20,000 bases of DNA, taken from a bacterium. GTDB taxonomy: Bacteria; Fibrobacterota; Chitinivibrionia; Chitinivibrionales; Chitinivibrionaceae. This document shows positions 1,790 to 18,829 of this stretch, in pieces. The notes below the pieces were generated by a model, which worked only from the letters and a program-made list of their open reading frames with translations, made no database searches and was not told where the DNA came from. How positions within the stretch are numbered: the stretch's first letter is position 1; every line of letters starts with the position of its first letter. A program made the position numbers and the translations under genes. The stretch lies in assembly GCA_020048285.1 (NCBI GenBank), contig JAIFMU010000119.1, positions 1 to 20,000 of the forward strand, given 5' to 3'.

Positions 1790-3217
1790 ATGACTATAAA
1801 AGCACCAAAGACCGTCCAAACAGAGAACTGGCAGGGATACAAAAATCCCGTTTGGCACAAAAAAGACAAAAAGAACGTTACCATTCTCTACAACATGATC
1901 GAACGACGGAAATCGTTTTTCCTTCGTGCCTACATGGAACGCAACGGCTACAACTATGTGGATCTTGGCGATCACGTCAAAGAGGATGTGCAGTTCGGGC
2001 GGGAATGGGGAACGCGGATGCAGTGCAATCCGATCTATTTCACTGCCGGTGCGATTATCCGCAATCTCCTTCGGATCGAAAAAGAGACAGGTCTTTCCAA
2101 AGAGAAGATCGTAAACGACTATGTGTTCCTCGGCGGAGGCGGTCAGTGCGGCCCCTGCCGCTACGGCATGTATCCTCAGGAGTATATGAAAGTTGCCAAT
2201 TCGGCGGGATTCAAAGATTTCCGATTCCTGATTTTCAACTCGGACATTATTCAGGATCCACCGATCCCCAAGGAAGCGGCGTTTCAGTTCGATGTGGGCT
2301 TTAAAGTCAACTTTATGCTGAGCTTTATTCTCGCGGACTTTATGCATATCGCCGAATGTGCACTTCGCCCCTATGCGATGGACAAAGAAGCGGCTTTGAA
2401 AACAATCACTCAGTGCGAAGAGATGATTCTCGAAACATTCAAGAGCAAACTCTATCTCTTTAAACTTCCCGGAGTGTTGCGGAAAGTCGGTAAGATTCTC
2501 GCGGCGGTTCCTCGCAAGGATATCAAGCTTCCGCAGATCTTTATCACCGGCGAAATCTTCGCAAATATGGCTCACAACGATGGAAACTACAACCTTCGCC
2601 GGTTCATCATGGACGAAGGTGGTGAAGTTCTTCCGGGGATCTTTTCCCAGCGAGGTTCTTACGAAGGGTGGCGTCGTATCAAGGAAGCGGAACGGAAAAT
2701 CCAGTACGCCGCTTCGCCAAAAGAGAAACGATACTGGCAGATCTATTCGTTCCGCCAGAAGATCTCCTACAATCTGGTGAAAAAGGCGTACGCGTGGCTT
2801 GAAAAAGCAATTGATCCGAAACAGTTCGGCGGAAAATCGGAGATGCACGATGTGGCGGAGCTGGCGAAAATCGGCGATGAACACTACAACACGCTCATTT
2901 TCGGCGGTGAAGGAAACATCGAGATCGGTGAAGCGATCTACTATCAGGACAAAATCGATGGATTTGTTTCGGTTAAACCGTTCGGCTGTATGCCTTCAAG
3001 CGGCGTGAGCGATGGTGTTCAGTCGAAAATTATCGGCATGTATCCGCATCTCAATTTCCTCTCGATCGAAACCTCCGGCGACAATGAAGTGAACATTCTT
3101 TCGCGCGTTTCCATGATGCTGTTCAAAGCAAAACAGCGGATGAAAGAGCGTGAGATGGGAGTTAAACCGGTGGTGGATGCTTCGAATCTGGATATCATAA
3201 CGACCTGTCGGGAGTAG
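1790..3217 (+). CDS. Protein of the 2-hydroxyacyl-CoA dehydratase (HGD-D / HgdB-like) family.
   Basis: 475-aa ORF preceded by agggaacaaacATG. It has a Cys-rich motif, GGGGQCGPCRYGMY, and further conserved cysteines typical of Fe-S dehydratase components. The family call is from memory. Confidence 0.55.
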   Translation: MTIKAPKTVQTENWQGYKNPVWHKKDKKNVTILYNMIERRKSFFLRAYMERNGYNYVDLGDHVKEDVQFGREWGTRMQCNPIYFTAGAIIRNLLRIEKETGLSKEKIVNDYVFLGGGGQCGPCRYGMYPQEYMKVANSAGFKDFRFLIFNSDIIQDPPIPKEAAFQFDVGFKVNFMLSFILADFMHIAECALRPYAMDKEAALKTITQCEEMILETFKSKLYLFKLPGVLRKVGKILAAVPRKDIKLPQIFITGEIFANMAHNDGNYNLRRFIMDEGGEVLPGIFSQRGSYEGWRRIKEAERKIQYAASPKEKRYWQIYSFRQKISYNLVKKAYAWLEKAIDPKQFGGKSEMHDVAELAKIGDEHYNTLIFGGEGNIEIGEAIYYQDKIDGFVSVKPFGCMPSSGVSDGVQSKIIGMYPHLNFLSIETSGDNEVNILSRVSMMLFKAKQRMKEREMGVKPVVDASNLDIITTCRE

Positions 3218-3360: not shown

Positions 3361-3747
3361 ATGTACTATATCAAAGAATCCGCAAAATCGTTTGAAATCA
3401 CCGCAGAAGATCTTGCAACTGCCGTCCCGGAACAGGGATTCGGTGTACTTCACATTCACGATCTTGGAAATACCCTTCGAAATAAAGGGCAGAGTTTCAG
3501 CGAAGAGTGCCGCGTGTTCGAAGTGTGCAATCCAGTCTATGCATCAAAAGTTCTTGCGCAGGATATTCGCCTAAACATGGCTCTCCCCTGCCGTATTTCG
3601 GTCTACACAGAACTGGGATCGGTAAAAGTAGCCATGATCCTACCGCAGGAGATGCTCACCGCGCTTTCCAATGATCCAATAATTCAATCTGCCGCGGCAG
3701 AAGTTCAGACTAAACTTAAAACGATTATTGATAAGGCAATTCAGTAA
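3361..3747 (+). CDS. Protein of the DUF302 family.
   Basis: 128-aa ORF with RBS aaggagaaccaATG. Motifs GFGVLHIHDLGNTLRNKG and CNPVYASKVL...PCRISVYTE match my memory of the DUF302 family. Confidence 0.6.
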   Translation: MYYIKESAKSFEITAEDLATAVPEQGFGVLHIHDLGNTLRNKGQSFSEECRVFEVCNPVYASKVLAQDIRLNMALPCRISVYTELGSVKVAMILPQEMLTALSNDPIIQSAAAEVQTKLKTIIDKAIQ

Positions 3748-3770: not shown

Positions 3771-5195
3771 ATGCGTTCACTCTCCCTTTTAGCAATTATC
3801 ACCATGTCAACCATGGCTCAAATTACCCCACAGGTAATCGTGGGTACCGATGCAGCCAAAGAGTACCGGATCAACACCGCCGATGACAATTCACTTCGCA
3901 CGAGAACAGCAATTATTCCGTTCACTCACATTAAAGTCGCTGAGATTTCCGGTCTGATCCGCAAGCAACTTTCCGTCTATGGGAATGTGACGCTCAATAC
4001 GGTATCAAACGAACTGATTGTCACCGATGAAGTTCGCAAACTGGAAAATATCGTTGCGGTCTGCAAATCTCTCGACAAAAAAGAGATGGAGAACTATCAG
4101 GCACGCCGTTCTGAACGAATCGCGGTTCAGTACGGGAAAGCATCTGAACTGGCGGGAGTCCTTGCAAACTTTCTCACGTCCGAAGGTTCAATCTCCGTTG
4201 ACAACAATTTTAATGCGCTGATCGTCACTGACCATCCCGAAGGAATCGCCAAGGTTCAAGATCAGCTGAAAAAGTTCGATGCTCCACAAAAACAGGTGGT
4301 GATCGATGTAGAAATCGTTGAAGTGGAATGGGGAAAACTGGAAGAAAATGGCATCGACTGGGATAAACTTCTCTCTTCGACATGGATAAATGCATCGACC
4401 CACAAGAGCGGCGCCGAAGCAATCTCAAATATTCTCGTTGAAAAAGAGGGCTCAACCTCTCAGAAAATTGCGGGGATCGAAGCGGGAATTTCTGTAGACA
4501 ATCTTTCGTCAGTCATCAAATTTATGCAGGAAAAAGGTGGCGCGAAGATTCTTGCCACTCCAAAACTGGTGACTGTTACCGGCAAACAGGCTTCGCTCTG
4601 GTATGGTGAAGATATTCGGGAACGCGGGATTATTCCGATAAATAGTTCACGTCAGAAAATCGAACCAAGTGGTACCTACGGAGTTGTAAGCCGTGTTCAA
4701 AATCATGCCGATTCTGCTAATTCTCCTTATTCAGGATCTTATAGCTATAATGCGAATACAACGAACTATCCTGCTAACTACAGCGGAAGTAGTTTGAGTA
4801 ACGTCACTCTTCAACGCACTGCCGGCCTTGATCTGCGAATCACCCCAACTCTTGGCGAAAGCGATCTGGTGAGTCTCGATTTCAACTGTGAACTGACCTC
4901 AATTCGCAGCTGGACACCTCAGGGAAATCCTCTCGTCACCGGTCAGGAGATCAACTCTTCGCTGATCGGAAAGATCGGTAAACCACTGCTGATTGGCGGA
5001 CTGAAACGAACAACCACGGTGGAAAAGAAAAAGCGCATTCCCGGACTCGGCCATATTCTTCCATTCCTTTTCTCGCGTACCGTGAGCGAAACAAAGGAAA
5101 CAGAACTAGCGATCCTGTTGACACCAAAAGTGGTTGATCTATCTACCGTAGTTCCCCGCCCTCAAGTGTTTGAAGAAACTGCAGAATTGAATTAA
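3771..5195 (+). CDS. Secretin-family outer-membrane channel (GspD/PilQ-like) with an N-terminal signal peptide.
   Basis: RBS aaggagttataATG and signal peptide MRSLSLLAIITMSTMAQ. The C-terminal secretin signature includes ILATPKLVTVTGKQA, GGLKRTTTVEKKKRIPGLGHILPFLFSRTVSETKETELAILLTPKVV and the N-domain segment NALIVTD. No other type II secretion or pilus genes are in the window. Confidence 0.7.
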   Translation: MRSLSLLAIITMSTMAQITPQVIVGTDAAKEYRINTADDNSLRTRTAIIPFTHIKVAEISGLIRKQLSVYGNVTLNTVSNELIVTDEVRKLENIVAVCKSLDKKEMENYQARRSERIAVQYGKASELAGVLANFLTSEGSISVDNNFNALIVTDHPEGIAKVQDQLKKFDAPQKQVVIDVEIVEVEWGKLEENGIDWDKLLSSTWINASTHKSGAEAISNILVEKEGSTSQKIAGIEAGISVDNLSSVIKFMQEKGGAKILATPKLVTVTGKQASLWYGEDIRERGIIPINSSRQKIEPSGTYGVVSRVQNHADSANSPYSGSYSYNANTTNYPANYSGSSLSNVTLQRTAGLDLRITPTLGESDLVSLDFNCELTSIRSWTPQGNPLVTGQEINSSLIGKIGKPLLIGGLKRTTTVEKKKRIPGLGHILPFLFSRTVSETKETELAILLTPKVVDLSTVVPRPQVFEETAELN

Positions 5196-5222: not shown

Positions 5223-5867
5223 ATGGGCATTTCAAACGGAATGCCTGTTTTATTAAAGACTAACGGGAATGGAATGAACAGAGAAGAACGGCGAGCAATA
5301 CGCAACTATCACACTAGTCGTCAGGGAGATGATGCACATCAGCAGGGGTGGCGTTCACAATTTCATCAGACGATACGATTTGAACAGTTTTGCAACTCTA
5401 CAGATTTTTCTAACTGTTCGATACTCGATCTAAGTTGTGGCAAAGGCGACTTTTATCAGTATGTGCGAAAACGGTTTGCGGGTATCTGCTACACGGGAAT
5501 CGATCTGATCGGATCATTTGTGAACGAAGCCATTGCGCGATATGCAAACCATTCGCAGGCAACATTCATTCACGGCGATTTTCTCATGGGATCACTCCCT
5601 TCGGCGGACTGGATAATCGCTTCGGGAAGTCTCAACTACGCCACTGAAGATCGCAATCATCCGTATGAAATTATTCGCGCCATGTGGGATTCCTCGAATA
5701 AAGGAGTGATGTGTAATCTTTTGGATTCACAAACATTCACCGGAACGAGAATTCTTACTAGCTTCTCCCCAACTATTCTGAACGACTATTGCAAAACATT
5801 TGCCCGATCAGTTCAGTGCATTGAAGGCTATCTTCAAGATGATTTCACGATCATATTGCGGAAATAA
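5223..5867 (+). CDS. Class I SAM-dependent methyltransferase. The true start may be the internal ATG at 5274 (MNREERRAI...).
   Basis: It has motif I ILDLSCGKGDF, the post-I acidic GIDL, motif II FIHGDF and motif III ADWIIASGSLNY. The substrate cannot be inferred. Confidence 0.55.
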   Translation: MGISNGMPVLLKTNGNGMNREERRAIRNYHTSRQGDDAHQQGWRSQFHQTIRFEQFCNSTDFSNCSILDLSCGKGDFYQYVRKRFAGICYTGIDLIGSFVNEAIARYANHSQATFIHGDFLMGSLPSADWIIASGSLNYATEDRNHPYEIIRAMWDSSNKGVMCNLLDSQTFTGTRILTSFSPTILNDYCKTFARSVQCIEGYLQDDFTIILRK

Positions 5868-5962: not shown

Positions 5963-8900
5963 CTATACTTCACTCAGTTTTTGTTCCAAAGCGATCTTAT
6001 CCGCCTCAGACATCAACTGTTTCAGCGCACTCAATGATACAAACACCGCCTTTTGAAGCTTTTTCAGTTTGTCTTGTTGCTCAGTCATCGCTTTAAGCAC
6101 CGGCGCCACAGAAGCCTGAACTTCGCGGTTGTGCGATTCCACAAGCGCGGAAATCGATGCATCAGACGTGGCATTCCCCTGAACCGCCACAGGTGACGAG
6201 GCTTTCAACAATGCTGTGATCTGTTTAATTGTATCATCGGTGAATGAAATTTTCGAAAGATCATCGCCAGATTTTGCGGCGTTGATTGTGGCAATCAGTT
6301 CGCGGATTCCCTTGAGCGAATCGCCGAATCCCGCCATCTGAAGAACCATTTGGCCAACCATGTCATCTTCCTGAAGGAGCTTGTTTTTCCCATAGGTATC
6401 CTTGATTGCATTCCAGCGAATCAGATCGTCGCCAGCAAGTTTCCCCACAATCTCTTTCCACTTGAGAAGGTTCGCTTCGGCACCGGAAGTGAGTGTTTGC
6501 GAATCATTTTCGTAACTCTGCTGAATCAACAAATCCAGTTCCGCATCGTTCATTACGGGAAGTACTTTTTCCGCAATTTTGTTCATGTTTCGGTACGACC
6601 CCTGCAGCTTGAACGATGGCTCTGTTCTAAACTCATCGGCCTGCGCTGCAGAATAGATGTACTGCATGTTCACGCTGAGCACTACATCGCGCACTTTCAA
6701 CATTTTTTTCAAAACCGTTAGATACTCCTGAACCTCGATTGGCGAGTAATTTCCTTCGAGATCGATCCCATCGGTTCGTCCATCCACAGCCGAATCAATT
6801 AACGTATACACGTCTTTCTGACTGCGGGTCATAAGTGAATTCATAATCGGATTTGAGGTTAGGGCATTTTCGAGATACGACAGTTTGAACGCCGATTCAT
6901 TTGCGCTGAGCATGTCACCCAAGTTGTACGTGTCAGCGCGGTTAGCCAGCATATCTGGAATCTGAAACTTCTCACCACTTTCAGTGTAGGGGTTTCCGGC
7001 CATGACAACAGCGACTTTTTTCCCGCGAAGATCATAGGTTCGGCTGATCCCGTTGTACACACCTTCAATTCGACGCTGACCGTCACAGAGAGATATGAAT
7101 TTCTGCAGGAACTCAGGATTACAGTGTTGAATATCATCAACATAGATCATCACATTATTACCCATTTCAAGGGCGAGGTTGAGTTTTTTCACCTCTTCAC
7201 GCGCTCCCGCATTGGGTGCCGATGTGGGATCGAGAGAGGTAACTTCGTGCCCCAATGCCGGACCGTTGATTTTCATGAAAATCAATCCCAATCGGCTGGC
7301 GATGTACTCCATAATCGTTGTTTTACCGTAACCGGGAGGTGAAATCAAAAGCAGCATCCCCATGAGGTCGGTGCGCTTGTTTTCGCCCACGGTTCCGATC
7401 TGTTTGGCGAAATTATCGCCGATAAGCGGAAGGTATACTTCGTTGATCAACCGATTGCGCACAAAGGAAGTAAGTACACGAGGCCGAAACTCTTCGAGGC
7501 GAAGTTCTTTGCGGAATGCATCAACCACCGCTTTTTTCGTCTCCTGATAGGTGTACCAAAGTGTAACCGTAACCGCGCTAAATGCACTCAGTTTCTCCAT
7601 GAATCCGGTGTAGGAAATAGCGTAGTTCCCTCCAGAGACCACCGTGTGATTTCCAATCAATCCAGTCACTGATATTTTCGTAGGAACTTCGATCACATTG
7701 CGAATATTGTACGAATCAGCCAAAAGAAGCTGAGCTGTTTCGGGGATAAACTCGGCGCGGTCCACAATGTTTGACTCAGCCGTATACGCTTCGAGCCATT
7801 CGAGGATCAATCCAAATTTCGCGGAAATTGAAGTTTCCAATTCAGCAAGCGACTCTTTGAAAACCGATTCGCCCCGCTTCTGCTTGAGCACTTCGCTGAA
7901 CCCCTTGTAGAGTTCTGAAGCCTCCGAAGAGATCACAAAGGTTTCACCGCGCATCTGTTCGCGACAGAGATAGTGCGCCGCTTCCAATGAAGTAGCACTT
8001 TCAAAATGACCGAATTCTGCGAGGAATGCCGCGAGAGCCGGTTTGATCTGCTGCGCATAACTGAGGATTGTCTTTTTAGTGCTGAACAACTGAGAAACTT
8101 TGTGGACACCGCGTAGGCGTGCGGCGAACAGTTTTTTGTCGGCGTCGCTGATCCCGAAATCCCAAAAAAGTTGAGCTGCAGTACGCGCGGTAGCCGGGAA
8201 CGTCAGTAGATCCAACGATGTATGAAGTTTGATCAGTTCCGTCAGGATTTTCGCCGTATCGCCATCGTGAATCCCCTTGATGTACCCTTCCTGAAGGCGC
8301 GTGGACATAAATTTCTGCACGTAATCCGCCAACTCTTCGCCGGTGAGATTCGCTAGTTCGGACAGTTCTCCCGATTTTTCAGCCGATTCAAGGATCGTGA
8401 AGGCCAAATATTCAGAACGATAGATTTGGTCGTTCTCCGAAGGCATTTCCTGTTTCCACACTGCTTTGAGCGAATCAAGCGCAGGACTTTCAACCTTTTG
8501 TTTGAAATCAGTGCCAGTGAGAAGGAACCAGTGGCCATCGTCGCGCTGAACCATGGTGAGATCAAGTTCTTGTGCATTCACTGAGAATTTATGTTTGCCA
8601 AACTTGACGACATTCGTTCCCTCTTCGAACAGCTCCTGCTTGTCCTTCAGTTGACGAACAGCTTCCTCTTTTGAGCTCTTTATCTGACTCTGAAGGTCAT
8701 CGGCTTTCACCGAATCACCCAGTTTGTTCAGCTCTTCCACGTTGTCGCGAACCTTTTCAATCATAAGATCCGTGGCGAAATATCCGTTGATTTCGTTAAT
8801 CGTGGTGAAATTTTTCAGGCGATTCTTAATCCCGGCGATAATCCGTTCCGAAGCCTGCATGATTGCGCCGGCACGCTTGTTCCGTTTTTCCACCAAGGAG

Positions 8901-11182
8901 AGTTTTTTCGTTTCAAAGGCACTGAACAACTCTTCTCGTTTTTCTGCAAGTTGAGGAATAAACTGATCGAAATCGGCAAACTTGCCTTCCAACTCTTCAA
9001 CCTGAACCATCAGTTTGGTCAGATATTCATCGCATTTTTCTGGCGTGTCAGCCACATCGAGATAGTTGATCACCGCTTGATTAAGCAGTTTCAGTTGTGA
9101 ATTAAACTCCGCAGTGCCTTCAAATGAAGAGAGTTCCGTGATTCGATTCTGAAGTTTTGCCTTTACCGCATTGAGCGATGAAAAAATCACCGAAATGGTG
9201 TCAATAATCGCCGTGGTCTGTGTGGGATCATCAATTTTCAGATTTGACACAATCTCAATAAGCAGTTCGAGATCACGCCCGGTCTTGCGAATCTCCTCTT
9301 CCAACGATTTGCCTTCGGCGGTCTTTTCGATTGAAGGAACGCGACTGCTCTGTGCTTCAACGCGAACTCTATACGGATCAAGTCCTTCAGGTTTGAGAAG
9401 ATATTCGATACACCCTTGTGAAAGTTCGTCAGATTTTGTGCGAACGTCAGTTTCCAGTGTTTCGATCAGCGGAAGATTTGTATAGCGCAACTCTTTGAGT
9501 GAAATGATCTCCCCGCGAAGAACTCGCAGTTCAGAAAGAGCCGTCACATAGAGATCCACGGAGTCAAACGTGGTACTGCGAATTTTCCGCATTCCGATTT
9601 CAACTTTTTCTGAAACCCGCGCAATTTCCTCTTCAGTAGATTTGCGGATTCGCACCACTTTTTCAAACTCGTCAATGGCAGTAATGGCGGCTTGACGAAT
9701 CTCAATAAGTACCGATTTCAGATCCGATGCGTCCTCTTTTTCAATCCAGAAATAGGTGTCGATAATTTCGGTACACTGTTTATTAATATCGACATAGAGA
9801 TTAGCGTAGCTATCTTCTTTGCGGATCAGGTTGATCACATTTTGGCACTCCGCCATGGTCTGAACAACCTGCTTGTTCCCCACTTTCACCAAGAATGAAT
9901 CACTAGTCACTTCAGCTTGGAAATCGGCGCTGGTAAAGGGCGTCTGCCAGATTTGCAGTTGGTGATTTTTCTTTGGCTCTTCGTCAGCGCGGAAGAGGAT
10001 CAGTTCACCGTTTTCGAAATGGGTGTAACCGTTGACAACAATTGGTGCTTCAATAGTTTGATTAATAAGATTATAGGTGAGTATTGCGTAGATTCCCGAT
10101 TCGCGATTAAAAAAGATATACTGAAAATCTTCGCCATTGGGTGAGACTTTTTTCTGAACAAACAGCATATCTTTCAGGCCCGTGTCGAACGTTTTGTATT
10201 CGCCAGACTGAAGATAATAGCCATTTGAAAAGACCAATCCCTGTTGATCGGGAAGAATTATACAGGCATCGGCTATCGCATCGATACGCGTGACACTCTG
10301 AATTTTTTCATTGAACACGAGATAACGGAATGTTTTTTCTTGGTATGGCTTGATTTTTATGAGAATGATATTGCCAATTATAGCGTAGTAAATCTCCGCA
10401 TCATCAAGTTTTTGATCTTTGCTCTCCACGTCTTCTGAGTAAATTCCGCGACCTGATTTTGTGTTGTTTTCAACTTTGATTGTGAGATCACCGCCCACGG
10501 TTTCCACAAACACTCGATCGTTGATCGAGATGTGAGGAAATTCGCCGTCACAGTGCATATCACGCGTCGTGCGTTTCCATTCAAATTCAAACTGAAGCGG
10601 AAACTGGTATTCATGATCACTGCGATTGTCCATATAGGTGAGTGCATTATCTTGAATCAACCACTTGAATGTCTTTATATCTGTGACACTATTGCCCGTT
10701 CTGAAAACCATAAATAAGTGGGGACCAATGATCGAAAACCGTGTAAAGAATGTGCTTTTGTAGTATTTATAGAGATCTTCGAAATCTTTAAGAAAGGTTT
10801 CGTTGTTGATCAGTGCCAGTGTTGTTTCGGTGAATTTTCGGTTTTGATACTCAAAGATCGCGAATACATCGGCCAGTTCGATCTTCGATTTCATTCCCAT
10901 CATCACGTTGAACCCGAAAATCGATTTGTTGCCAATCTGAACGAGATCGCGCGGTGTGCAATTGTTGACGGTCATGATTCGTTCATTGCTAACAATAGAC
11001 ATTTCTATCGATCCGAAAATCTCCTTTCGCGTGCAGTTGAGTCTCTCGAGTCGAGTCTGCAGTTCCGCACTGTGCGTTTTCAGTCGCCCGCGAATCACTT
11101 CGTATGTACCACTTTCCATTGTAGGAACTTCGTGAATTGTCAGTTCTTGGTCAGCCACAGAATCTCCTTGAATGATTGCCAT
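5963..11182 (-). CDS. Giant (1739 aa) multidomain protein. It has an N-terminal beta-rich domain of about 480 aa, a long coiled-coil/alpha region, and a single MoxR/AAA_5 (dynein-related)-type AAA+ ATPase module near residues 1250-1420, followed by a C-terminal alpha-helical tail of about 320 aa.
   Basis: One uninterrupted 5.2-kb ORF. The Walker A motif LLLISPPGYGKTT is encoded at about 7317-7340. The Walker B and arginine-finger region VMIYVDDIQHCNPEFLQKFISLCDGQRRIEG parallels the MoxR pattern DEINRA..Q.ALLEAM.E..V. A sensor-1-like motif VAVVMAGNPY parallels AxxNP of AAA_5. Heptad-rich segments lie between residues about 480 and 1000. It is last in the operon with the NfeD-like and flotillin genes. 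The family assignment is by motif only. Confidence 0.6.
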   Translation of the reverse strand: MAIIQGDSVADQELTIHEVPTMESGTYEVIRGRLKTHSAELQTRLERLNCTRKEIFGSIEMSIVSNERIMTVNNCTPRDLVQIGNKSIFGFNVMMGMKSKIELADVFAIFEYQNRKFTETTLALINNETFLKDFEDLYKYYKSTFFTRFSIIGPHLFMVFRTGNSVTDIKTFKWLIQDNALTYMDNRSDHEYQFPLQFEFEWKRTTRDMHCDGEFPHISINDRVFVETVGGDLTIKVENNTKSGRGIYSEDVESKDQKLDDAEIYYAIIGNIILIKIKPYQEKTFRYLVFNEKIQSVTRIDAIADACIILPDQQGLVFSNGYYLQSGEYKTFDTGLKDMLFVQKKVSPNGEDFQYIFFNRESGIYAILTYNLINQTIEAPIVVNGYTHFENGELILFRADEEPKKNHQLQIWQTPFTSADFQAEVTSDSFLVKVGNKQVVQTMAECQNVINLIRKEDSYANLYVDINKQCTEIIDTYFWIEKEDASDLKSVLIEIRQAAITAIDEFEKVVRIRKSTEEEIARVSEKVEIGMRKIRSTTFDSVDLYVTALSELRVLRGEIISLKELRYTNLPLIETLETDVRTKSDELSQGCIEYLLKPEGLDPYRVRVEAQSSRVPSIEKTAEGKSLEEEIRKTGRDLELLIEIVSNLKIDDPTQTTAIIDTISVIFSSLNAVKAKLQNRITELSSFEGTAEFNSQLKLLNQAVINYLDVADTPEKCDEYLTKLMVQVEELEGKFADFDQFIPQLAEKREELFSAFETKKLSLVEKRNKRAGAIMQASERIIAGIKNRLKNFTTINEINGYFATDLMIEKVRDNVEELNKLGDSVKADDLQSQIKSSKEEAVRQLKDKQELFEEGTNVVKFGKHKFSVNAQELDLTMVQRDDGHWFLLTGTDFKQKVESPALDSLKAVWKQEMPSENDQIYRSEYLAFTILESAEKSGELSELANLTGEELADYVQKFMSTRLQEGYIKGIHDGDTAKILTELIKLHTSLDLLTFPATARTAAQLFWDFGISDADKKLFAARLRGVHKVSQLFSTKKTILSYAQQIKPALAAFLAEFGHFESATSLEAAHYLCREQMRGETFVISSEASELYKGFSEVLKQKRGESVFKESLAELETSISAKFGLILEWLEAYTAESNIVDRAEFIPETAQLLLADSYNIRNVIEVPTKISVTGLIGNHTVVSGGNYAISYTGFMEKLSAFSAVTVTLWYTYQETKKAVVDAFRKELRLEEFRPRVLTSFVRNRLINEVYLPLIGDNFAKQIGTVGENKRTDLMGMLLLISPPGYGKTTIMEYIASRLGLIFMKINGPALGHEVTSLDPTSAPNAGAREEVKKLNLALEMGNNVMIYVDDIQHCNPEFLQKFISLCDGQRRIEGVYNGISRTYDLRGKKVAVVMAGNPYTESGEKFQIPDMLANRADTYNLGDMLSANESAFKLSYLENALTSNPIMNSLMTRSQKDVYTLIDSAVDGRTDGIDLEGNYSPIEVQEYLTVLKKMLKVRDVVLSVNMQYIYSAAQADEFRTEPSFKLQGSYRNMNKIAEKVLPVMNDAELDLLIQQSYENDSQTLTSGAEANLLKWKEIVGKLAGDDLIRWNAIKDTYGKNKLLQEDDMVGQMVLQMAGFGDSLKGIRELIATINAAKSGDDLSKISFTDDTIKQITALLKASSPVAVQGNATSDASISALVESHNREVQASVAPVLKAMTEQQDKLKKLQKAVFVSLSALKQLMSEADKIALEQKLSEV

Positions 11183-11262
11183 GATTTTATGTGTTGTAAT
11201 GGAATTATAGGTTAGATATCAATCTCAACTTTGTCCGGCTATGGCGAACTGAGTTGCAACAG

Positions 11263-11299
11263 ATAGAGTGAGGTTGCCCAAACGACAACCTCACTCTAT
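11263..11299 (-). other. Strong stem-loop, 14-bp perfect stem ATAGAGTGAGGTTG / CAACCTCACTCTAT with a 9-nt loop, placed between the flotillin stop and the giant ATPase start. No U-tract follows on the transcribed strand.
   Basis: Perfect 14-bp inverted repeat read directly. It begins 5 nt after the flotillin stop codon on the - strand and lies about 80 nt before the ATG at 11182. This is a candidate attenuator, processing site or partial terminator that could set relative expression of the flotillin and the giant gene. Confidence 0.5.
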
Positions 11300-11303
11300 A
11301 CTA

Positions 11304-13460
11304 CTACGAGTTCAGGATCTTTGCAGGAAGGTCGCCGAAACCGGCTTTCTTTACAGAATCGAGAAGCGAATCGAGCGACTCTTTGTCACCTGTTTCAGCT
11401 CCGCGAGACATTTTTAGCAAAAGCCCGCTCAGTGTCAAGTTTTTCAGATCTTCCGAACCAATTCCGAACTGATTGATAAACTTGTTGATCTGCGCTTTGA
11501 AATAAGCCTGATCACCGGTGATAAAGGTTCTTTTCACATCGGTCAGCACTTCCGAGTTGTCCACCATGCGATCAATAGCCTTACCCTGAGTAATCGCTCC
11601 AACGATCTTGTCGAAGAACATTGTCTCCCCGCCGACGATATCGATTTTCGCTGAACGAAGTGCTTCGTTGATAACCGATGCCTGAGCTGCGGCGATATCG
11701 CGCTGAACAGCAATTTGAGCGAGATCGATCTCTTTCTCCTTGTCCAGTCTGAGTTTGAACTCTTCGTGTTCTCTGCCCACGCCGTCGAGAAGTTTCATCG
11801 CATTAGCTTTTTCTTCAATACCAACAGCTTCAGCGGTGAACTTTTTCGACATAACTGCCGCTTCCGCTTCGCCCTCTTTCTGTTTTGCGATAGCATTTGC
11901 TTCGCGTCCTTTCGCTTCCGATTCTGCGGTTGCCTGAAGAACACCAGCTTTTGCCGATCCCTCTTTTTCAAGAGCTGCCGCTTTGATCTCGATACCCTTT
12001 GCTTCCGCGTTGGCTGTAGCTTCGAGGACTCGCGCTTTCGCAATTCCCTCTTTTTCGTACGCAATTGCTTTGGATTCAATAACGCGCGCTTCAGACAATC
12101 CTACAACCGCTTCCTCTTCAGATTTCGCAGCAGCCATGATTTTAACTGCTTCAGCCTGTTTTTCCGCCGCTTTGAGATTTGCATCCGCTTCGATTACGTG
12201 TTGTTCGGACAAGAGAACCGCAGAAATCTTCGCCGACTCCGCCGCTTTCGTTTCGCGAATCAGCGACTCTTCGGCAAGGCGCTGAGCGTCAGTAACGGCC
12301 ACTTTTTTCGCACGATCAGCCCCGGCAAATGCTTCAGTGTCCTTGATTCGCTCTTGTTCGACCACTACCTCTTTTTCCACCATCACACGAGCGCGAATAA
12401 CATCCTGAATATTCTTGCGCTGCTCTTCAACGGCTTTCTCTTTTTCAATTTGAGCGAGCTGAACGATTTTCTCTTTTTCTGTTTGTTCGAGAAGGCGCTC
12501 TTTGTCGACCCGTTCTGTTTCAATCGCTTCGGTGCGCTCTTTCGCTTTCTGAGCTACAATGATCTGACGGTTCTTGTTCTCTTCCTGAACAGCAATCTCT
12601 TCATCTGTGGTGATTCTCGCTTTTTCTGATTTCAGACGCTCTTCCTGAGCGATCTTTTCAGCTTCTGCTTCTTCTCGTGAAGTGATCGATGCAATTTCGC
12701 GTTTCTGTTTCTCTTCTGCTTCGCGTTGTTGTTTTTCAAGAAGAAGAATTGCTTCGCGAGCTTTCACGTCTTGCTGTTTGATTGTTTTCTCTTTTTCGCG
12801 CATTATTTCATTGGCGCGAATTGCCTGTGTAGCGGTGCGATCGTGAATTTTTTTGATACCTTCAGCATCGAGAATATTATCAGCGTTAAGTGCATTTACA
12901 TCAGTCTGCTCGAGATAGTCAATCGCACAATCCTCGAGAACATACCCGTTGAGATCTTTGCCAATAATCTGGATAATCTCTTTTTTGAATTCGAGTCGAT
13001 CGGTGTAGAGCTGTTCAAAATCGAACTTCTTACCTACGGTTTTGAGTGCTTCCGAGAACTTCGCATCAAAAAAATCTTTCAATCCTGCTTCAGATGAAGC
13101 CTTTACAGTCCCTAATGATTTTGCGACAAGAAGAACATCTGCGTGATTATCTTGATTCACTTTTACAAAAAATGCCACTTTAATATCTGCGCGCATGTTG
13201 TCTTTACAGATCAATCCATCTTTTCCGGTGCGCTCAATTTCGACCCGTTTCACAGAAATGTCCATCAGTTCTGCTTTGTGAATCACCGGAAGGACAATCA
13301 TACCACTTAAGGAAACTTTTGATCCGCCGAGGCCGTTGCGAATGATCGCTTCACCCTGAATCACTTTTCTAAAACTGCGGATAATGAGAATCGCCGTTCC
13401 CACAACAAAAAATACACCTAATCCGATCAGCGTCATGGTAACCGTTGATAATTCTGGCAT
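11304..13460 (-). CDS. Flotillin-family SPFH/band-7 protein (YqiK/FloT-like) with an N-terminal membrane anchor and a long Glu/Ala/Lys-rich coiled-coil tail.
   Basis: The N-terminus has a transmembrane segment followed by IIRSFRKVIQGEAIIRNGLGGSKVSLSGMIVLPVIHKAELMDISVKRVEIER, a typical YqiK/flotillin SPFH start. It is followed by EA-repeat coiled coil. The start codon lies 3 nt after the upstream NfeD-like stop, suggesting translational coupling. Confidence 0.75.
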   Translation of the reverse strand: MPELSTVTMTLIGLGVFFVVGTAILIIRSFRKVIQGEAIIRNGLGGSKVSLSGMIVLPVIHKAELMDISVKRVEIERTGKDGLICKDNMRADIKVAFFVKVNQDNHADVLLVAKSLGTVKASSEAGLKDFFDAKFSEALKTVGKKFDFEQLYTDRLEFKKEIIQIIGKDLNGYVLEDCAIDYLEQTDVNALNADNILDAEGIKKIHDRTATQAIRANEIMREKEKTIKQQDVKAREAILLLEKQQREAEEKQKREIASITSREEAEAEKIAQEERLKSEKARITTDEEIAVQEENKNRQIIVAQKAKERTEAIETERVDKERLLEQTEKEKIVQLAQIEKEKAVEEQRKNIQDVIRARVMVEKEVVVEQERIKDTEAFAGADRAKKVAVTDAQRLAEESLIRETKAAESAKISAVLLSEQHVIEADANLKAAEKQAEAVKIMAAAKSEEEAVVGLSEARVIESKAIAYEKEGIAKARVLEATANAEAKGIEIKAAALEKEGSAKAGVLQATAESEAKGREANAIAKQKEGEAEAAVMSKKFTAEAVGIEEKANAMKLLDGVGREHEEFKLRLDKEKEIDLAQIAVQRDIAAAQASVINEALRSAKIDIVGGETMFFDKIVGAITQGKAIDRMVDNSEVLTDVKRTFITGDQAYFKAQINKFINQFGIGSEDLKNLTLSGLLLKMSRGAETGDKESLDSLLDSVKKAGFGDLPAKILNS

Positions 13461-13463
13461 AAA

Positions 13464-14111
13464 CTACTCCAACTCTCCTCGAAAGGGTTCAATACTGTAG
13501 ACATTCTCTTCTTCACTTTTAGATACAATTTTAACTGAAGCTCCGGCGGGAAGTTTCATTCCCGTTTTCCCCTGACAATTGACAAGAAACGAACCATTGT
13601 CAATAACTACTTGCCCCATTTCTCCATCATTGAGATCAAACCGAAGTGTTCCCACTGATCCGATAATCTCTTTGGACAACTCAGCTTTTCCGTTGATCCC
13701 GAGAAATAGTTTTTTCAGTGGAATAGTGATTATGCGTGTAATCAATGCCGCTAGGACAAAGGATGGAATCATACCTATAATATTCGGGATTCCTCCCCAA
13801 GAGTTTGTAGCAAGTGAAATTAGAATTGTATACAACCAAAACAGAGTGAACAGAATGGTCAAATAAATTGATACAGGAATATCGCCGATTTTTAGAAATA
13901 GAAGTAGATCAGTGCCAAATCCGTCGGATTCGAGATCGACGTCAATGTCTAATCCTTCGACCTGAAAGAGTCCCAGAATAACGGTAATCCAATAGATCAC
14001 CACAAGAATGAGGAAAAAAGTGGGAATAGCATTTGCGCCGGCAATGGAAAGTTTCAGCAGAGAGAGAAATTCAGTCAAGTGAACCTCAGCAGAGTTGAAT
14101 GTACAGACCAA
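13464..14111 (-). CDS. NfeD-like/YqiJ-like inner-membrane protein that partners SPFH proteins.
   Basis: It has several hydrophobic helices followed by a C-terminal soluble beta-domain (GEMGQVVIDNGSFLVNCQGKTGMKLPAGASVKIVSKSEEENVYSIEP) of OB-fold NfeD type. Its position directly upstream of the flotillin gene mirrors the yqiJ-yqiK and yuaF-floT arrangements. Confidence 0.6.
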   Translation of the reverse strand: MVCTFNSAEVHLTEFLSLLKLSIAGANAIPTFFLILVVIYWITVILGLFQVEGLDIDVDLESDGFGTDLLLFLKIGDIPVSIYLTILFTLFWLYTILISLATNSWGGIPNIIGMIPSFVLAALITRIITIPLKKLFLGINGKAELSKEIIGSVGTLRFDLNDGEMGQVVIDNGSFLVNCQGKTGMKLPAGASVKIVSKSEEENVYSIEPFRGELE

Positions 14112-14256: not shown

Positions 14257-14886
14257 GTGAAAACGATCGCCGTATGTATTTCTCTTTTTCTTGGTGCTAC
14301 CACTACACTTCTACTCTCAACTGTAGGTGAATTGACCTTCGCAATCTCGGGACTGATAGGATTACTCACTACCGGTGTAGCCTTTATCGCAATCCCTTCG
14401 CCGAGTAAACCAGATTCACCCAAGACAACTCGAGCAGCTAATCAATCCGCAATTCCACAGATTGTTCATACTGCAGAAAAAGATATTGCACAGCTCGAAC
14501 TCATTCTGTCCCAGCTCATAGAATCACCAAGCAGATCGAGGCTCCTATCGATTATCCAAGTGGCAAAGCAGTTACAGCAGGCACCGTTGCAAGATCCACG
14601 TACCAACATTGATCTACACAGTTTTTTTAACCACTATCTTCCCGCCACCGCTGCGATTTGTACACATTATATAGAACTGACTCAACACCCTTTTCAAACT
14701 GAAGAAGTAGCGGAAACTCTCGCCAAAACAGAACAAGCACTTGAACAGATAGAGGTGGCCTTTAAAAAACAACGATCGAATCTTCTGGCTCATGATTTAC
14801 TCGATCTCAATGTTGAACTCACGGTGATAGAATCGTCGCTTCGCCTTGAAGGATTGGTTGAAAAAGCAGACTCACGCAGAGGATAA
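14257..14886 (+). CDS. XpaC-like membrane protein (5-bromo-4-chloroindolyl phosphate hydrolysis protein family) with a GTG start.
   Basis: It has two N-terminal TM helices followed by a helical domain. It lies immediately upstream (3-nt gap) of a TelA-like gene, the same pairing as Bacillus xpaC-yaaN. The family call is from memory. Confidence 0.5.
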   Translation: MKTIAVCISLFLGATTTLLLSTVGELTFAISGLIGLLTTGVAFIAIPSPSKPDSPKTTRAANQSAIPQIVHTAEKDIAQLELILSQLIESPSRSRLLSIIQVAKQLQQAPLQDPRTNIDLHSFFNHYLPATAAICTHYIELTQHPFQTEEVAETLAKTEQALEQIEVAFKKQRSNLLAHDLLDLNVELTVIESSLRLEGLVEKADSRRG

Positions 14887-14889
14887 TCG

Positions 14890-15963
14890 ATGATCAAGGA
14901 ACATACACTCCCAAAAGATCACTCACCAATCGACAACTCCCTTTTTTCTGATGAACAGCAGCAACGCATTGCCGAACTTGCAGCATCCCTATCTATCGAA
15001 AACTCTCTGGAGATGGCGCAATATGGCACTTCTGCTCAGCGTGCAATCGCGCGACAGGCCAATGCAATGCTTCTCGCCATTCGTGAACGCGAAGGCAGCG
15101 AAATAGGTTCAACTCTGTCACAACTCAAACTCACAATAGAAAAGGTTGATCTCTCAAACGATGAAGGCTCCCGTTCTCGTTTATCCAAAATCCCATTTTT
15201 CGGAAATTTTTTCAATTCGACAAAGCAATACCATATCAAATTTGAAACGATAGTCACGCAGATTGACTCAATACTTACCGCTTTAGACACACATCGCGTA
15301 GCTCTTCTCAAAGATAACGAACGACTTAACTACCAATTTTCCCAGAATGAAAATGCTATTATCGATCTGACGATGTTTATCTCAGCCGGTGAAATGAGAC
15401 TCGATGAAATCAGAACAATTCACCACAAACAGCTTAATGAAGGAGCTCTAAAATCACAAGATTCTCTCATGTCACAAGAAATCGCAGACAAAGAACACCT
15501 GATGGCACGATTTGAAAAACGTCTCTTCGACCTATCGATCAGTCGGACCCTTGCCCTGCAAATAGCTCCTCAAATTCGACTTATTCAGAGTACGAACAAT
15601 AGGCTTGTCGAAAAAATAAATGGTGTGATTATCTCGACAATACCGATTTGGAAACAGCAAGTTGCCCTAGCTCTTTCACTGAGTAATTATCAAAAGGGGA
15701 TTGAACAAAAGCGAGCTTTCACGAAAGCAACAATTGATCAGTTCACCGTTCAGGCACAACTTATCAAGGAGGGAACAGCCGCAGTGAACCTGAACTCGCA
15801 GGACATGAGCATTGAAAAGGAAAAAGTGAAAATAGTTCAGGAAAATCTCATTGCCACAATCACAGAGACGATTCTCCTTCAAGAAAAATGTCTGGAAAAT
15901 CGCCAGTCGATTGAAAGAGAGTTGGTTGCCATGGAACAGGAGTTACAGGCGGCTCGGATCTGA
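14890..15963 (+). CDS. TelA-like (toxic anion resistance / KlaB / YaaN family) protein.
   Basis: 357 aa. The N-terminal region DEQQQRIAELAASLSIENSLEMAQYGTSAQRAIARQANAML and the overall helical architecture match the TelA family. It is tightly coupled to the XpaC-like gene. Confidence 0.6.
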   Translation: MIKEHTLPKDHSPIDNSLFSDEQQQRIAELAASLSIENSLEMAQYGTSAQRAIARQANAMLLAIREREGSEIGSTLSQLKLTIEKVDLSNDEGSRSRLSKIPFFGNFFNSTKQYHIKFETIVTQIDSILTALDTHRVALLKDNERLNYQFSQNENAIIDLTMFISAGEMRLDEIRTIHHKQLNEGALKSQDSLMSQEIADKEHLMARFEKRLFDLSISRTLALQIAPQIRLIQSTNNRLVEKINGVIISTIPIWKQQVALALSLSNYQKGIEQKRAFTKATIDQFTVQAQLIKEGTAAVNLNSQDMSIEKEKVKIVQENLIATITETILLQEKCLENRQSIERELVAMEQELQAARI

Positions 15964-16040: not shown

Positions 16041-16733
16041 TCAATATTCGAGGGGTGTTTTGAAAATTAGTCCCGATGCAAGCATGCTCACCGGAGCAGC
16101 TATTCCTACACCCAAATGAGCAATTCCCGTATAGCGAGCCATTTCGTGTTTTCCTTCGCTGAGCGCGTAGGACTGAACAAATCCAAGTGCAATTGTTGAA
16201 ACCATCAGCCCCGCATGAACATAAAAAGCTTTCCGATGCAGTGCCGTTTTTGATCGTTTCGATTGACTGTTACGAATATTGGGCAATGCAAGTTCGATCG
16301 ATGCGGTTGCCGTGTAGGCGATTGTTCCAAGAGCAACTAATCCTCCGTGAATAACCCGTTCTGATTGCGACTGAGAACTTTGCCACACGTTCTGTGTTCC
16401 ATTTTGTTGATTAGTTTCAGACATACCGACTTCATTGCGATAGGTATGGCCCTGATTTTTCATGGAAAGGAAATGGTATAATCCCATTCCATTTGCAGCG
16501 AGCAGAATTCCTCCTGTGGTATAGGCAAGTCTTCTATGAACTCGCATTGCATTGGTTTGTCGAACCGTGAAAAGACGATTTTCATCCGTCAAAAACTGGA
16601 CCGCTGAATCGAGCAATCGCGTTTGTTCCATGAGAGAGTCAGAAATTGGCGCCGTTGACAACGGGGTAATCGTTTGCCCCTGCAGTGGAAAGAGAATCAC
16701 AAAGAACAGAATCAGAAAAATGTAATTGCGCAT
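16041..16733 (-). CDS. Hypothetical membrane protein with a signal peptide and about four hydrophobic segments.
   Basis: The ORF track gives 16041-16865. A start at 16733 (MRNYIFLILFFVILFPLQGQT) is preferred because of the RBS aaggaaaacaatATG and the signal-peptide-like N-terminus. There is an internal approximate duplication (AYTTGGILLAANGMGLYHF / ARYTGIAHLGVGIAAPVSML). Confidence 0.5.
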   Translation of the reverse strand: MRNYIFLILFFVILFPLQGQTITPLSTAPISDSLMEQTRLLDSAVQFLTDENRLFTVRQTNAMRVHRRLAYTTGGILLAANGMGLYHFLSMKNQGHTYRNEVGMSETNQQNGTQNVWQSSQSQSERVIHGGLVALGTIAYTATASIELALPNIRNSQSKRSKTALHRKAFYVHAGLMVSTIALGFVQSYALSEGKHEMARYTGIAHLGVGIAAPVSMLASGLIFKTPLEY

Positions 16734-16997
16734 ATTGTTTTCCTTTGCATATCGCTTTGCCGCCTTTGCCACATTCACGAGATTCACCGTGAACCCGACA
16801 ATAATACCATTTGGGGATCTAAGATACGAGGTAAAAGAGAAGAAGATGCCAATCGCTAATTGCACAGAATTATCGCAAGCATAATATTCACTCTAGAATC
16901 TGAAATATCTACAACACACTAATATTATAAATCTTATATTTCTAGTATCGTCACGTTCAATCCGAATGTGACACATCAATAACAAGAAGGAGAACGT

Positions 16998-17777
16998 ATG
17001 AGTCCTGAAGATTCGTACAACAAGATCAAAAAGCAAGCGGCTCAGATTGAGTCTGAACAGTGGCGCCGTCCTTCGGGGACCAGTTCGCAGATTATCAAAG
17101 ATGGCCACGACCAGATTCTTGTGGCTCGCGAAGACAAAACCAAACTGGTGGAAGCGGGAATGGCGGAGACGCTGATCGACACGGCAGAAACAGCTCTTCT
17201 CGGGTATAGCTGGGTGGATGGTCTCTATGCCACAACGCTTTGCAGCGACAGTGTCCTTCGCACTGCATGGGAATCAGGATTGGAAAATGGGTTCAACCTT
17301 CGCGGGGAACTGTTCAAATTCGGGGATTTCGGGATTCGCCGGAATCGACTCACGGCAGTGAAAGCGATGTTCACGGAGATCAAAAAGGGGATCGGCCCCG
17401 ATGATATGATCATGGATCTCAAGGAGCTGAATCAGTTTTTTGTTTCCAACCCCACCGTGACAGCGGGACTGAAACAGTTTGTTCCGGGCTGGGTTGAAGA
17501 GGCACTGATGATTCACAACGAACTGACGGATCTTAGAACAAAACTTTGCGCCACCGCAGACAACACCAATCTCGACAAATTCTACAGTGAAAAGCGCGGT
17601 GCTTTCACGCTGTATCAGAACGCGATCGATGAGGTTCGCGAATGGGGACAGTTTGTGTTTGATGGAACTGAACGGGCGGAGAAATATCGCGCACAGTACC
17701 TTGTGGGTCGCGGCGGGCGGCCTTCAAAGAAAGATGAAAACAAACCTGCTACAGAGGTCGTAAACCCTCAGATGTAG
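16998..17777 (+). CDS. Hypothetical soluble protein (259 aa). No family recognised.
   Basis: Good RBS (aaggagaacgtATG) and a clean ORF followed by a strong intrinsic terminator. Confidence 0.5.
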   Translation: MSPEDSYNKIKKQAAQIESEQWRRPSGTSSQIIKDGHDQILVAREDKTKLVEAGMAETLIDTAETALLGYSWVDGLYATTLCSDSVLRTAWESGLENGFNLRGELFKFGDFGIRRNRLTAVKAMFTEIKKGIGPDDMIMDLKELNQFFVSNPTVTAGLKQFVPGWVEEALMIHNELTDLRTKLCATADNTNLDKFYSEKRGAFTLYQNAIDEVREWGQFVFDGTERAEKYRAQYLVGRGGRPSKKDENKPATEVVNPQM

Positions 17778-18130: not shown

Positions 18131-18213
18131 TTTTGGCGAGATATTTACCGGTGATTCGCCGGTGAAGAGCGATTTCGCGGATGGTATATTACACTGGTCA
18201 AAGGCAGGGAGAT

Positions 18214-18648
18214 ATGACGGAGTCGAAGGATCATCTGACGCCGGAGAGGCGAAGCTGGAATATGAGCCGGATTCGGTCGAAGGATACTAAGCCGGAGATA
18301 GTTGTCCGAAAGGCTCTCTTTGCCGCCGGTTTCCGATATCGCCTCCATGTGAAAGATCTTCCCGGGAAGCCGGATATTGTTCTTCCGAAGTATAAAACGG
18401 CAATTTTCGTTCACGGCTGTTTCTGGCACCGCCACGAGGGATGCAAACGGTGTACAACTCCTACGAAAGATCGGGAGTTCTGGGAGAAGAAGTTCCAGAG
18501 AACGGTGGAACGGGATCAGCAGGAAAGAATCGCTCTTGAACACGCAGGATGGAGAGTTCTGACTGTGTGGGAGTGTGAGATCGGGACTGCCAAAATCGAA
18601 AAAACGGTACTGCTTCTGAAATCTAAAATTCTGAGCGGGGGGAGTTAA
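18214..18648 (+). CDS. vsr: Very-short-patch repair endonuclease (Vsr family).
   Basis: SWNMSRIRSKDTKPEIVVRKALFAAGFRYRLHVKDLPGKPDIVLPKYKTAIFVHGCFWHRHEGC is a classic Vsr N-terminus and active-site region. The start at 18214 (MTESKD...) is preferred over the upstream ATG at 18181. Confidence 0.8.
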   Translation: MTESKDHLTPERRSWNMSRIRSKDTKPEIVVRKALFAAGFRYRLHVKDLPGKPDIVLPKYKTAIFVHGCFWHRHEGCKRCTTPTKDREFWEKKFQRTVERDQQERIALEHAGWRVLTVWECEIGTAKIEKTVLLLKSKILSGGS

Positions 18649-18809: not shown

Positions 18810-18829
18810 GTTAGTGAGTATTGATTGCA

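Follow-up and report, generated by a model that had tools for sequence, protein, structure and literature searches.

A widespread bacterial operon couples a YqiK-type flotillin to a giant MoxR-class ATPase and may encode a remodeller of membrane scaffolds

What might a soluble ATPase of more than 1,700 amino acids (aa) be doing immediately downstream of a flotillin gene? The question is raised by a 20,000-nt stretch of DNA (hereafter the window) from a member of the Chitinivibrionaceae in the phylum Fibrobacterota (positions 1 to 20,000 of contig JAIFMU010000119.1, assembly GCA_020048285.1). Three genes follow one another on its minus strand, encoding a YqiJ/NfeD-like small membrane protein (13464-14111; an open reading frame (ORF) of 215 aa with a TTG start), a YqiK-type flotillin (11304-13460; 718 aa) and a giant soluble AAA+ protein (5963-11182 as a maximal ORF; 1739 aa). 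An earlier examination of the letters of this DNA (the sequence-only reading) had placed three co-directional genes here, with a 3-nt spacer between the first two and a 121-nt spacer between the flotillin stop codon and the maximal ORF of the giant gene, and we find the ORFs and both spacers exactly as it described them. The assignment of these genes to an operon and of the giant protein to its family, as set out below, is one in which we have high confidence. Our overall explanation of the locus, advanced with moderate confidence, is that the giant protein acts as an ATP-driven remodeller or chaperone of flotillin or PspA assemblies during envelope stress.

The start of the giant gene requires a small correction. 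The ATG codon at position 11182 that opens the maximal ORF has no Shine-Dalgarno sequence, and a GTG codon at 11158 is preceded by GGAGA. Gene callers choose this GTG, from which both the deposited protein of 1731 aa and its counterpart in L089, an 85%-identical relative, are read. Judging from these sequence features, the giant gene probably begins at 11158, which would make its product 1731 aa long, 8 residues shorter than the maximal ORF, and lengthen the spacer behind the flotillin gene to 145 nt.

The association of the three genes extends far beyond the window. Loci were collected from the best 80 of at least 589 confirmed matches to the giant protein among 185,579 species genomes (one genome per species), and to these were added loci from a Ruminiclostridium-type genome and from Sulfidibacter (Acidobacteriota), as well as the relatives L087, L088 and L089. 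Upstream genes were counted only where sufficient sequence was present, at least 2.5 kb for the flotillin gene (67 loci) and at least 4.5 kb for the YqiJ-like gene (62 loci). In 64 of these 67 loci the giant gene is immediately preceded, on the same strand, by a flotillin orthologue, and a YqiJ-like gene stands ahead of the flotillin gene in 56 of the 62. Linked loci are found in Bacteroidota, Planctomycetota, Verrucomicrobiota, Desulfobacterota, Clostridia/Halanaerobiales, Acidobacteriota, Omnitrophota, Kiritimatiellota and Fibrobacterota. Thus, homologues of the giant protein do sit beside SPFH and NfeD-type genes in at least eight phyla, a linkage that the sequence-only reading had singled out as a test of its proposal. 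The pairwise-identity matrices of the three genes also correlate with one another (0.68-0.77; r = 0.77 for the giant protein and flotillin), the mean identities being 50% for the ATPase, 55% for flotillin and 29% for the YqiJ-like protein. In many phyla the three genes are passed on jointly, and all-against-all clustering of the ORFs in 83 loci revealed no further family that is conserved set-wide.

The giant protein is likewise an established entity rather than a product of gene fusion. More than 5,400 homologues came out of a word-indexed search. The 120 best are 1600-2000 aa long, 50-85% identical and furnished with the same set of Pfam domains, and 380 clusters at 50% identity (E <= 1e-30) were obtained when the first 900 residues were searched exhaustively. 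Full-length members that have diverged to ~26% identity retain a length of ~1600 aa, and the homologues as a whole span 1590-1930 aa; these observations dispose of the concern, raised together with the original proposal, that the protein might be a fusion artefact of several genes. Conservation is unevenly distributed along the chain. Across phyla, column identity reaches 87-90% in the AAA+ core and 65-79% in the DUF3686 domain, and falls to ~47% in residues 1001-1200. Those homologues that are named in the source databases are called 'DNA repair ATPase', 'AAA family ATPase' or 'MoxR-like ATPase'.

Some loci contain additional genes. In approximately one-third of them, one to three small genes lie on the same strand between the flotillin and ATPase genes (examples are L008:6609-7695, L026:7228-7896, L064:2478-3347 and L066:5835-7735). 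We considered these inserts as a possible fourth component of the system and rejected them, as their products, which include DMP19-like, DUF3997, AbiEii toxin, esterase and DUF3592 proteins, are unrelated to one another; the gap looks like a hotspot that has received opportunistic insertions. In 17-19 loci, all of the Bacteroidota type, genes for a CesT_Tir_1 protein (E = 5e-56) and a PspA_IM30 protein (E = 9e-41) are located immediately upstream of the YqiJ-like gene. Beyond this pair, a divergently oriented gene encodes an XRE-family helix-turn-helix (HTH) regulator of ~250 aa (L015:1906-4109 and 16-18 other Bacteroidota loci), which is a candidate for a dedicated regulator of the CesT-PspA-YqiJ-flotillin-ATPase operon. 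An HTH-cupin regulator is encoded upstream in L088, and in L087 (15493-20107; a 66%-identical relative) genes for a GntR regulator, a short second Band_7 protein and a MacB/FtsX-type ATP-binding cassette transporter come after the ATPase gene, an arrangement seen once.

Operons of this kind have been noted before. In a comparative-genomic study published in mSystems (Ravi et al., 2024; PMC11237479), operons combining band-7/flotillin, AAA+ and YqiJ/YuaF genes were reported to occur with or without a CesT/Tir-PspA dyad, the abbreviated operons that lack PspA being the more widely distributed. That account consists of a few sentences of comparative genomics without experiments, and the clade of the AAA+ protein is left unassigned in it. 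The family is nevertheless the same, as orthologues of the window genes are found in the 17-19 Bacteroidota loci that contain CesT and PspA, and neither PspA nor CesT is matched among the scanned ORFs of the window. By its gene content, then, the window locus represents the abbreviated version, without PspA, of an operon that is widespread among bacteria, and it belongs to a kind already recognized by comparative genomics and is not a new kind of system. The sequence-only reading knew of no described giant AAA+ partner of flotillin, and the view that none had been described is accordingly not supported. Our full-text searches of the literature for the Pfam names of the family, and for MoxR in combination with flotillin, SPFH or YqiK, found nothing specific, and no ATPase partner is mentioned in Hinderhofer (2009), in a 2026 paper on a P. 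aeruginosa SPFH protein or in a paper on S. oneidensis SO1377.

The two membrane proteins of the operon are recognizable to different degrees. In the product of the first gene, a Kyte-Doolittle scan revealed hydrophobic segments resembling transmembrane (TM) helices at residues 31-49, ~75-98 and ~106-129, followed by a beta-rich C-terminal domain. Its Pfam matches all fall below threshold (YqiJ_N, E = 0.002-0.007; NfeD, PF01957, E = 0.02), and its alignment with E. coli YqiJ is collinear and not significant (BLASTP E = 0.58). Seven of 27 orthologues match YqiJ_N, the best with E = 3.6e-8, and one of the 27 matches NfeD PF01957 at E <= 0.01. Taken together, the sub-threshold matches and the seven orthologues that hit YqiJ_N suggest that the first gene encodes a divergent partner of the YqiJ/NfeD type.

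The flotillin is composed of an N-terminal TM anchor (residues 9-27), an SPFH/Band_7 domain (~33-176), a long coiled coil and a conserved C-terminal segment, and it aligns with E. coli YqiK over 457 aa with 27% identity (BLASTP E = 6e-37). Full-length flotillin gave no Pfam match, whereas residues 1-222 alone match Band_7 (PF01145) with E = 4.9e-12 and 46.7 bits against a cutoff of 23.6. The missing full-length match is probably explained by the bias filter of HMMER, triggered by a coiled coil rich in Glu, Ala and Lys (19% E, 19% A and 12% K in residues 211-560). Most homologues of the window flotillin (P0122-P0241) also have no precomputed Pfam domain. The subfamily is systematically under-annotated, with the compositional bias of the coiled coil as the probable cause, and automated Pfam annotation largely misses the partner flotillins of this operon.

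Pfam recognizes four families in the giant protein (DUF3686, DUF7902, AAA and AAA_5). The sequence-only reading, which had predicted the AAA_5 match, had taken a single AAA+ cassette to be the only recognizable catalytic part of the protein. The cassette is not the only part that can be recognized: the DUF3686 domain (PF12458) occupies residues 40-478 (9749-11065, minus strand) with a full-length match at E = 8e-181, and DUF7902 is matched at residues 600-682. The DUF3686 domain is beta-rich. Ravi et al. (2024; PMC11237479) termed the equivalent region 'beta-propeller repeats', and our profile-profile comparison of four N-terminal segments detected no internal repeats or propeller blades within it. 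The remainder of the chain, residues 540-1739, was modelled by AlphaFold from an alignment of 109 sequences, with a mean predicted local distance difference test score (pLDDT) of 84.6. From its N-terminal end, the model comprises ~300 residues of long helices of up to 58 residues each, a beta domain, an all-alpha domain, the AAA+ module, a C-terminal region made up of helices and a tail that is predicted poorly. The long helices correspond to a coiled-coil or spectrin-like region (residues 542-851; 8630-9559, minus strand) that includes DUF7902, and the secondary structure of the model then assigns a five-stranded beta domain to residues 858-896 and the all-alpha domain to residues 922-1155 (together 7718-8611, minus strand). 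The tail (residues 1640-1739; 5966-6265, minus strand) is variable, with ~25% column identity and pLDDT values below 65, and contains a long terminal helix. Ahead of the AAA+ module, helical spacer accounts for about 700 residues of the chain. No TM segment was detected anywhere in the giant protein (maximum KD19 1.25).

The AAA+ module (residues 1244-1513 including the lid; 6644-7453, minus strand) contains the motifs that had been predicted from the sequence, namely Walker A (PPGYGKTT, 1282-1289, with K1287), Walker B (IYVDDIQH, 1346-1353, with D1349-D1350) and MAGNPY (1394-1399, with sensor-1 N1397). Residues K1287, D1349-D1350, N1397 and R1415 are invariant among the 18-109 homologues compared. 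In the model, a pre-sensor-1 beta-hairpin is formed by residues 1371-1384 (strands 1371-1376 and 1379-1384), and helix 2 is interrupted by an insert at 1311-1324; both are defining features of this section of the AAA+ tree (PMC7159879). On the evidence of the model, the module is MoxR-class by fold, with CbbQ, NorQ and midasin as its closest AAA+ relatives, which upholds the earlier 'MoxR/dynein-type' designation. Searches of the PDB with the single giant protein and with a profile of the family produced P-loop matches only. The earlier placement of the arginine finger is probably incorrect: in the model, the segment DGQRRIEG forms the pre-sensor-1 hairpin, and a better candidate for this role is R1415, an invariant residue just ahead of strand 5.

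Between the flotillin and ATPase genes lies a further conserved element. Directly after the flotillin stop codon, the transcript of the minus strand can form a hairpin (11263-11299) with a perfect 16-bp stem and a 5-nt loop, confirming the strong hairpin that had been pointed out in this spacer. A 128-nt spacer sequence folds with a free energy of -40.9 kcal/mol (z = -5.6 versus dinucleotide shuffles), and the stem is preserved in L089 through two compensatory pair changes.

How might these components work together? In the scheme that we favour, flotillin and the YqiJ-like protein would assemble into an SPFH cage or microdomain at the cytoplasmic side of the membrane, and the ATPase would hexamerize through its AAA+ ring. 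The long helical arms and the N-terminal beta-domain could then allow the ATPase to reach the scaffold or its clients, and ATP hydrolysis would remodel the scaffold, promoting its assembly, its disassembly or the extraction of clients, by analogy with the action of MoxR proteins on their partner complexes, of Vps4 on ESCRT-III and of FtsH inside HflK/C. The hairpin would keep the ATPase below the level of the scaffold, and the physiological setting would be the repair of envelope or membrane stress. Several observations speak for this scheme, including the solubility of an ATPase whose two partners are both membrane proteins, the conserved linkage and correlated identities of the three genes, the MoxR-class fold, the CesT-PspA pair upstream in 17-19 loci and the conservation of the hairpin. 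The coupling of an SPFH scaffold to an AAA+ machine has precedents in HflK/C-FtsH and in prohibitin-m-AAA. The sequence-only reading had likewise envisaged a remodelling or sensing machine built with a flotillin scaffold; it was right about the architecture, the type of AAA+ module and the gene linkage, and the remodelling itself is the part that we infer. The remodelling mechanism is put forward tentatively, and we would place its chances at or slightly below even.

A number of points weigh against this scheme. Contact between the ATPase and flotillin is an inferred step in it. A vWA/MIDAS co-chaperone is the usual partner of MoxR-clade ATPases (PMC7159879), and none is present here: Pfam finds no VWA match in the giant protein, a result that the sequence-only reading had wished to see checked, its model contains no such domain, and the 83 loci contain no conserved VWA neighbour, a single VIT-VWA gene being located near L087 on the other strand. 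In every aligned member the Walker B motif has DD rather than DE, and robust ATP hydrolysis is therefore an assumption. The linkage to PspA is limited to one phylum in this sample, and that to the telA and xpaC-like genes next to the operon in the window is limited to a single narrow lineage. No U-tract follows the hairpin, which a consensus scan does not class as an intrinsic terminator, and a role in holding the ATPase sub-stoichiometric to the scaffold is speculation. Finally, the searchable literature contains no experimental work on any member of the family.

A more specific form of the remodelling scheme can also be formulated, which we regard as doubtful. The protein might be a dedicated hexameric 'flotillin remodelase', a vWA-independent mechanoenzyme similar to MoxR proteins and midasin, the arms and beta-domains of which would grip the flotillin cage or recruited PspA polymers. 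Such an enzyme would, on this rather unlikely proposal, spend ATP on opening the cage, taking it apart or shifting its position. If true, bacterial flotillin microdomains would possess an energy-dependent assembly cycle comparable to those of Vps4/ESCRT-III and NSF/SNARE.

Among the explanations that compete with scaffold remodelling, membrane-protein quality control fares best, and we consider it unlikely. Damaged membrane proteins gathered within the flotillin cage would here be unfolded or extracted by the ATPase, forming a protease-less analogue of FtsH-HflK/C. The pairing of SPFH proteins with AAA+ proteases is established for HflK/C-FtsH and prohibitin-m-AAA, and S. aureus FloA-NfeD is reported to stabilize unfolded proteins (PMC11222466). 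A soluble ATPase with long arms and an extremely conserved AAA+ core would also suit this function. Against it, the conserved operon includes neither a protease domain nor a protease gene, and no substrates are known. The nearest relatives by fold are, moreover, CbbQ, NorQ and midasin, whose better-known activity is to remodel partner complexes that are already folded, rather than to unfold proteins processively.

Anti-phage defence, in which the flotillin scaffold would serve for sensing or positioning at the membrane and the giant ATPase would trigger an abortive or blocking response, is in our estimate improbable. It had been suggested by the surroundings of the operon in the window, where an xpaC-like gene (14257-14886, plus strand; Pfam Halogen_Hydrol, E = 3e-25) and telA (14890-15963, plus strand; Pfam TelA, E = 1.9e-68) diverge from the operon, and where a match to Vsr (E = 6e-35; 18181-18648, plus strand) and a Dcm-type C5 methyltransferase gene (18821-19903, plus strand) lie 3-6 kb away. 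The Vsr-Dcm module is real and is not a conserved neighbour. The xpaC-telA arrangement recurs in L089, but it is absent from L087, from L088 (57% identical) and from the 80 genome loci; TelA and XpaC were rejected as parts of the system on account of this absence from all but one related locus. The xpaC-telA pair is reported to be upregulated in daptomycin-resistant E. faecium (PMC6811118), an observation that we count in favour of a role in envelope stress.

Other features of the family have some affinity with defence systems. The family occurs in many phyla and was recovered from a minority of species (at least 589 confirmed matches in the 185,579 species genomes), as is the pattern of accessory genes; an AbiEii toxin and a DMP19-like protein are among the products of the inserts that separate flotillin from the ATPase; a few neighbours match PADLOC models such as SspH, MzaA and mad8; and some conflict systems employ MoxR ATPases (PMC7159879). 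However, the PADLOC comparison suggested for the operon was negative, as none of its three proteins, nor TelA, XpaC or the product of a 274-aa ORF in the window, has a match in PADLOC-DB v2 at E <= 0.01. No defence family recurs among the 126 nearest-neighbour proteins of 38 loci, in which the PADLOC matches are all singletons and several belong to generic enzyme families, and the neighbours are mostly housekeeping or unrelated genes (aconitase, shikimate pathway, sulfatases, two-component systems). Neither Pfam nor the model reveals a nuclease, a toxin or another effector domain in the operon's proteins; the sequences are far more conserved than would be usual in defence genes (mean identities of 50-55%, with a column identity of 87-90% in the AAA+ core); and the extra partners that are conserved, PspA and CesT, are not defence genes. 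The view that the neighbouring genes mark a defence or stress island, and with it the phage-defence half of the original hypothesis, is therefore not supported. A defensive role retains a low probability on account of the uneven spread of the family over phyla and of the conflict-type insertions seen in some loci.

A function in DNA repair or recombination is very improbable. It would accord with the names given to the family by Pfam and NCBI ('ATPase involved in DNA repair', 'DNA repair ATPase', 'Holliday junction resolvasome helicase subunit') and with weak matches to RuvB (Pfam RuvB_N, E = 8e-6; NCBIfam, 23 bits where the cutoff is 282; PDB profile, E ~1e-3). The similarity to RuvB, from which the family probably took its 'DNA repair' name, spans just ~45 residues at the P-loop (1267-1312); no DNA-binding domain and no repair genes among the conserved neighbours were found, and the constant partners are two membrane proteins. 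The name 'DNA repair ATPase', which draws on P-loop similarity only, is probably misleading.

Further genes flank the operon in the window. On the telA side of the operon, the 274-aa ORF (16041-16865, minus strand) lies between telA and the putative restriction-modification module and has weak matches to membrane-protein DUFs only, and a 259-aa ORF ahead of Vsr (16998-17777, plus strand), for which no family match was found, could encode the cognate restriction endonuclease. On the other side are a DUF2229 coenzyme A-enzyme-activase fragment (6-656), a 475-aa ORF without a match (1790-3217), overlapped on the opposite strand by one of 377 aa, a DUF302 gene (3361-3747), a secretin gene (3771-5195) and a small S-adenosylmethionine-dependent methyltransferase gene (5223-5867) that is convergent with the ATPase gene. 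The G+C content dips to 0.39 around positions 500-2000.

The role of bacterial flotillins is debated, and we know of no characterized energy-consuming partner for them. In hundreds of species of many phyla, the operon joins flotillin with a MoxR-class ATPase that is both very large and extremely conserved and, in one phylum, with PspA as well. It thereby offers a testable idea, namely that flotillin or PspA assemblies are actively remodelled.

Comparison with described systems places the window locus closest to the operons of Ravi et al. (2024), with which it shares a co-directional flotillin gene, a YqiJ-like protein with three TM segments and an AAA+ protein that carries an N-terminal beta-rich domain and a coiled coil. 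Some of those operons also contain CesT/Tir-PspA, an XRE-type regulator or phospholipase D, whereas the window has none of these and instead has the divergent xpaC-telA pair. The order of a small membrane protein followed by flotillin is that of E. coli YqiJ-YqiK and B. subtilis YuaF-FloT, the two genes being tightly coupled in the window by their 3-nt spacer. In contrast, the E. coli yqiJ-yqiK operon has no third gene, and small RNA/toxin loci follow yqiK; the window flotillin is ~165 aa longer than YqiK, and the window YqiJ-like protein is very divergent.

Likenesses and differences are also apparent on the side of the ATPase. The MoxR chaperone systems (CbbQ-CbbO, NorQ-NorD and RavA-ViaA) and midasin differ from the window operon and its protein, which have no vWA/MIDAS domain and a DD Walker B motif, and the window protein is about six times the length of a typical MoxR protein and possesses a beta-rich N-terminal domain, helical arms and membrane-scaffold partners. 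HflK/C-FtsH and prohibitin-m-AAA resemble the proposed system in that a membrane scaffold of the SPFH family is functionally coupled to an AAA+ machine. FtsH, however, is a membrane-anchored AAA+ protein of the classical clade that is fused to a protease, whereas the window protein is soluble, belongs to the MoxR clade and carries no protease domain.

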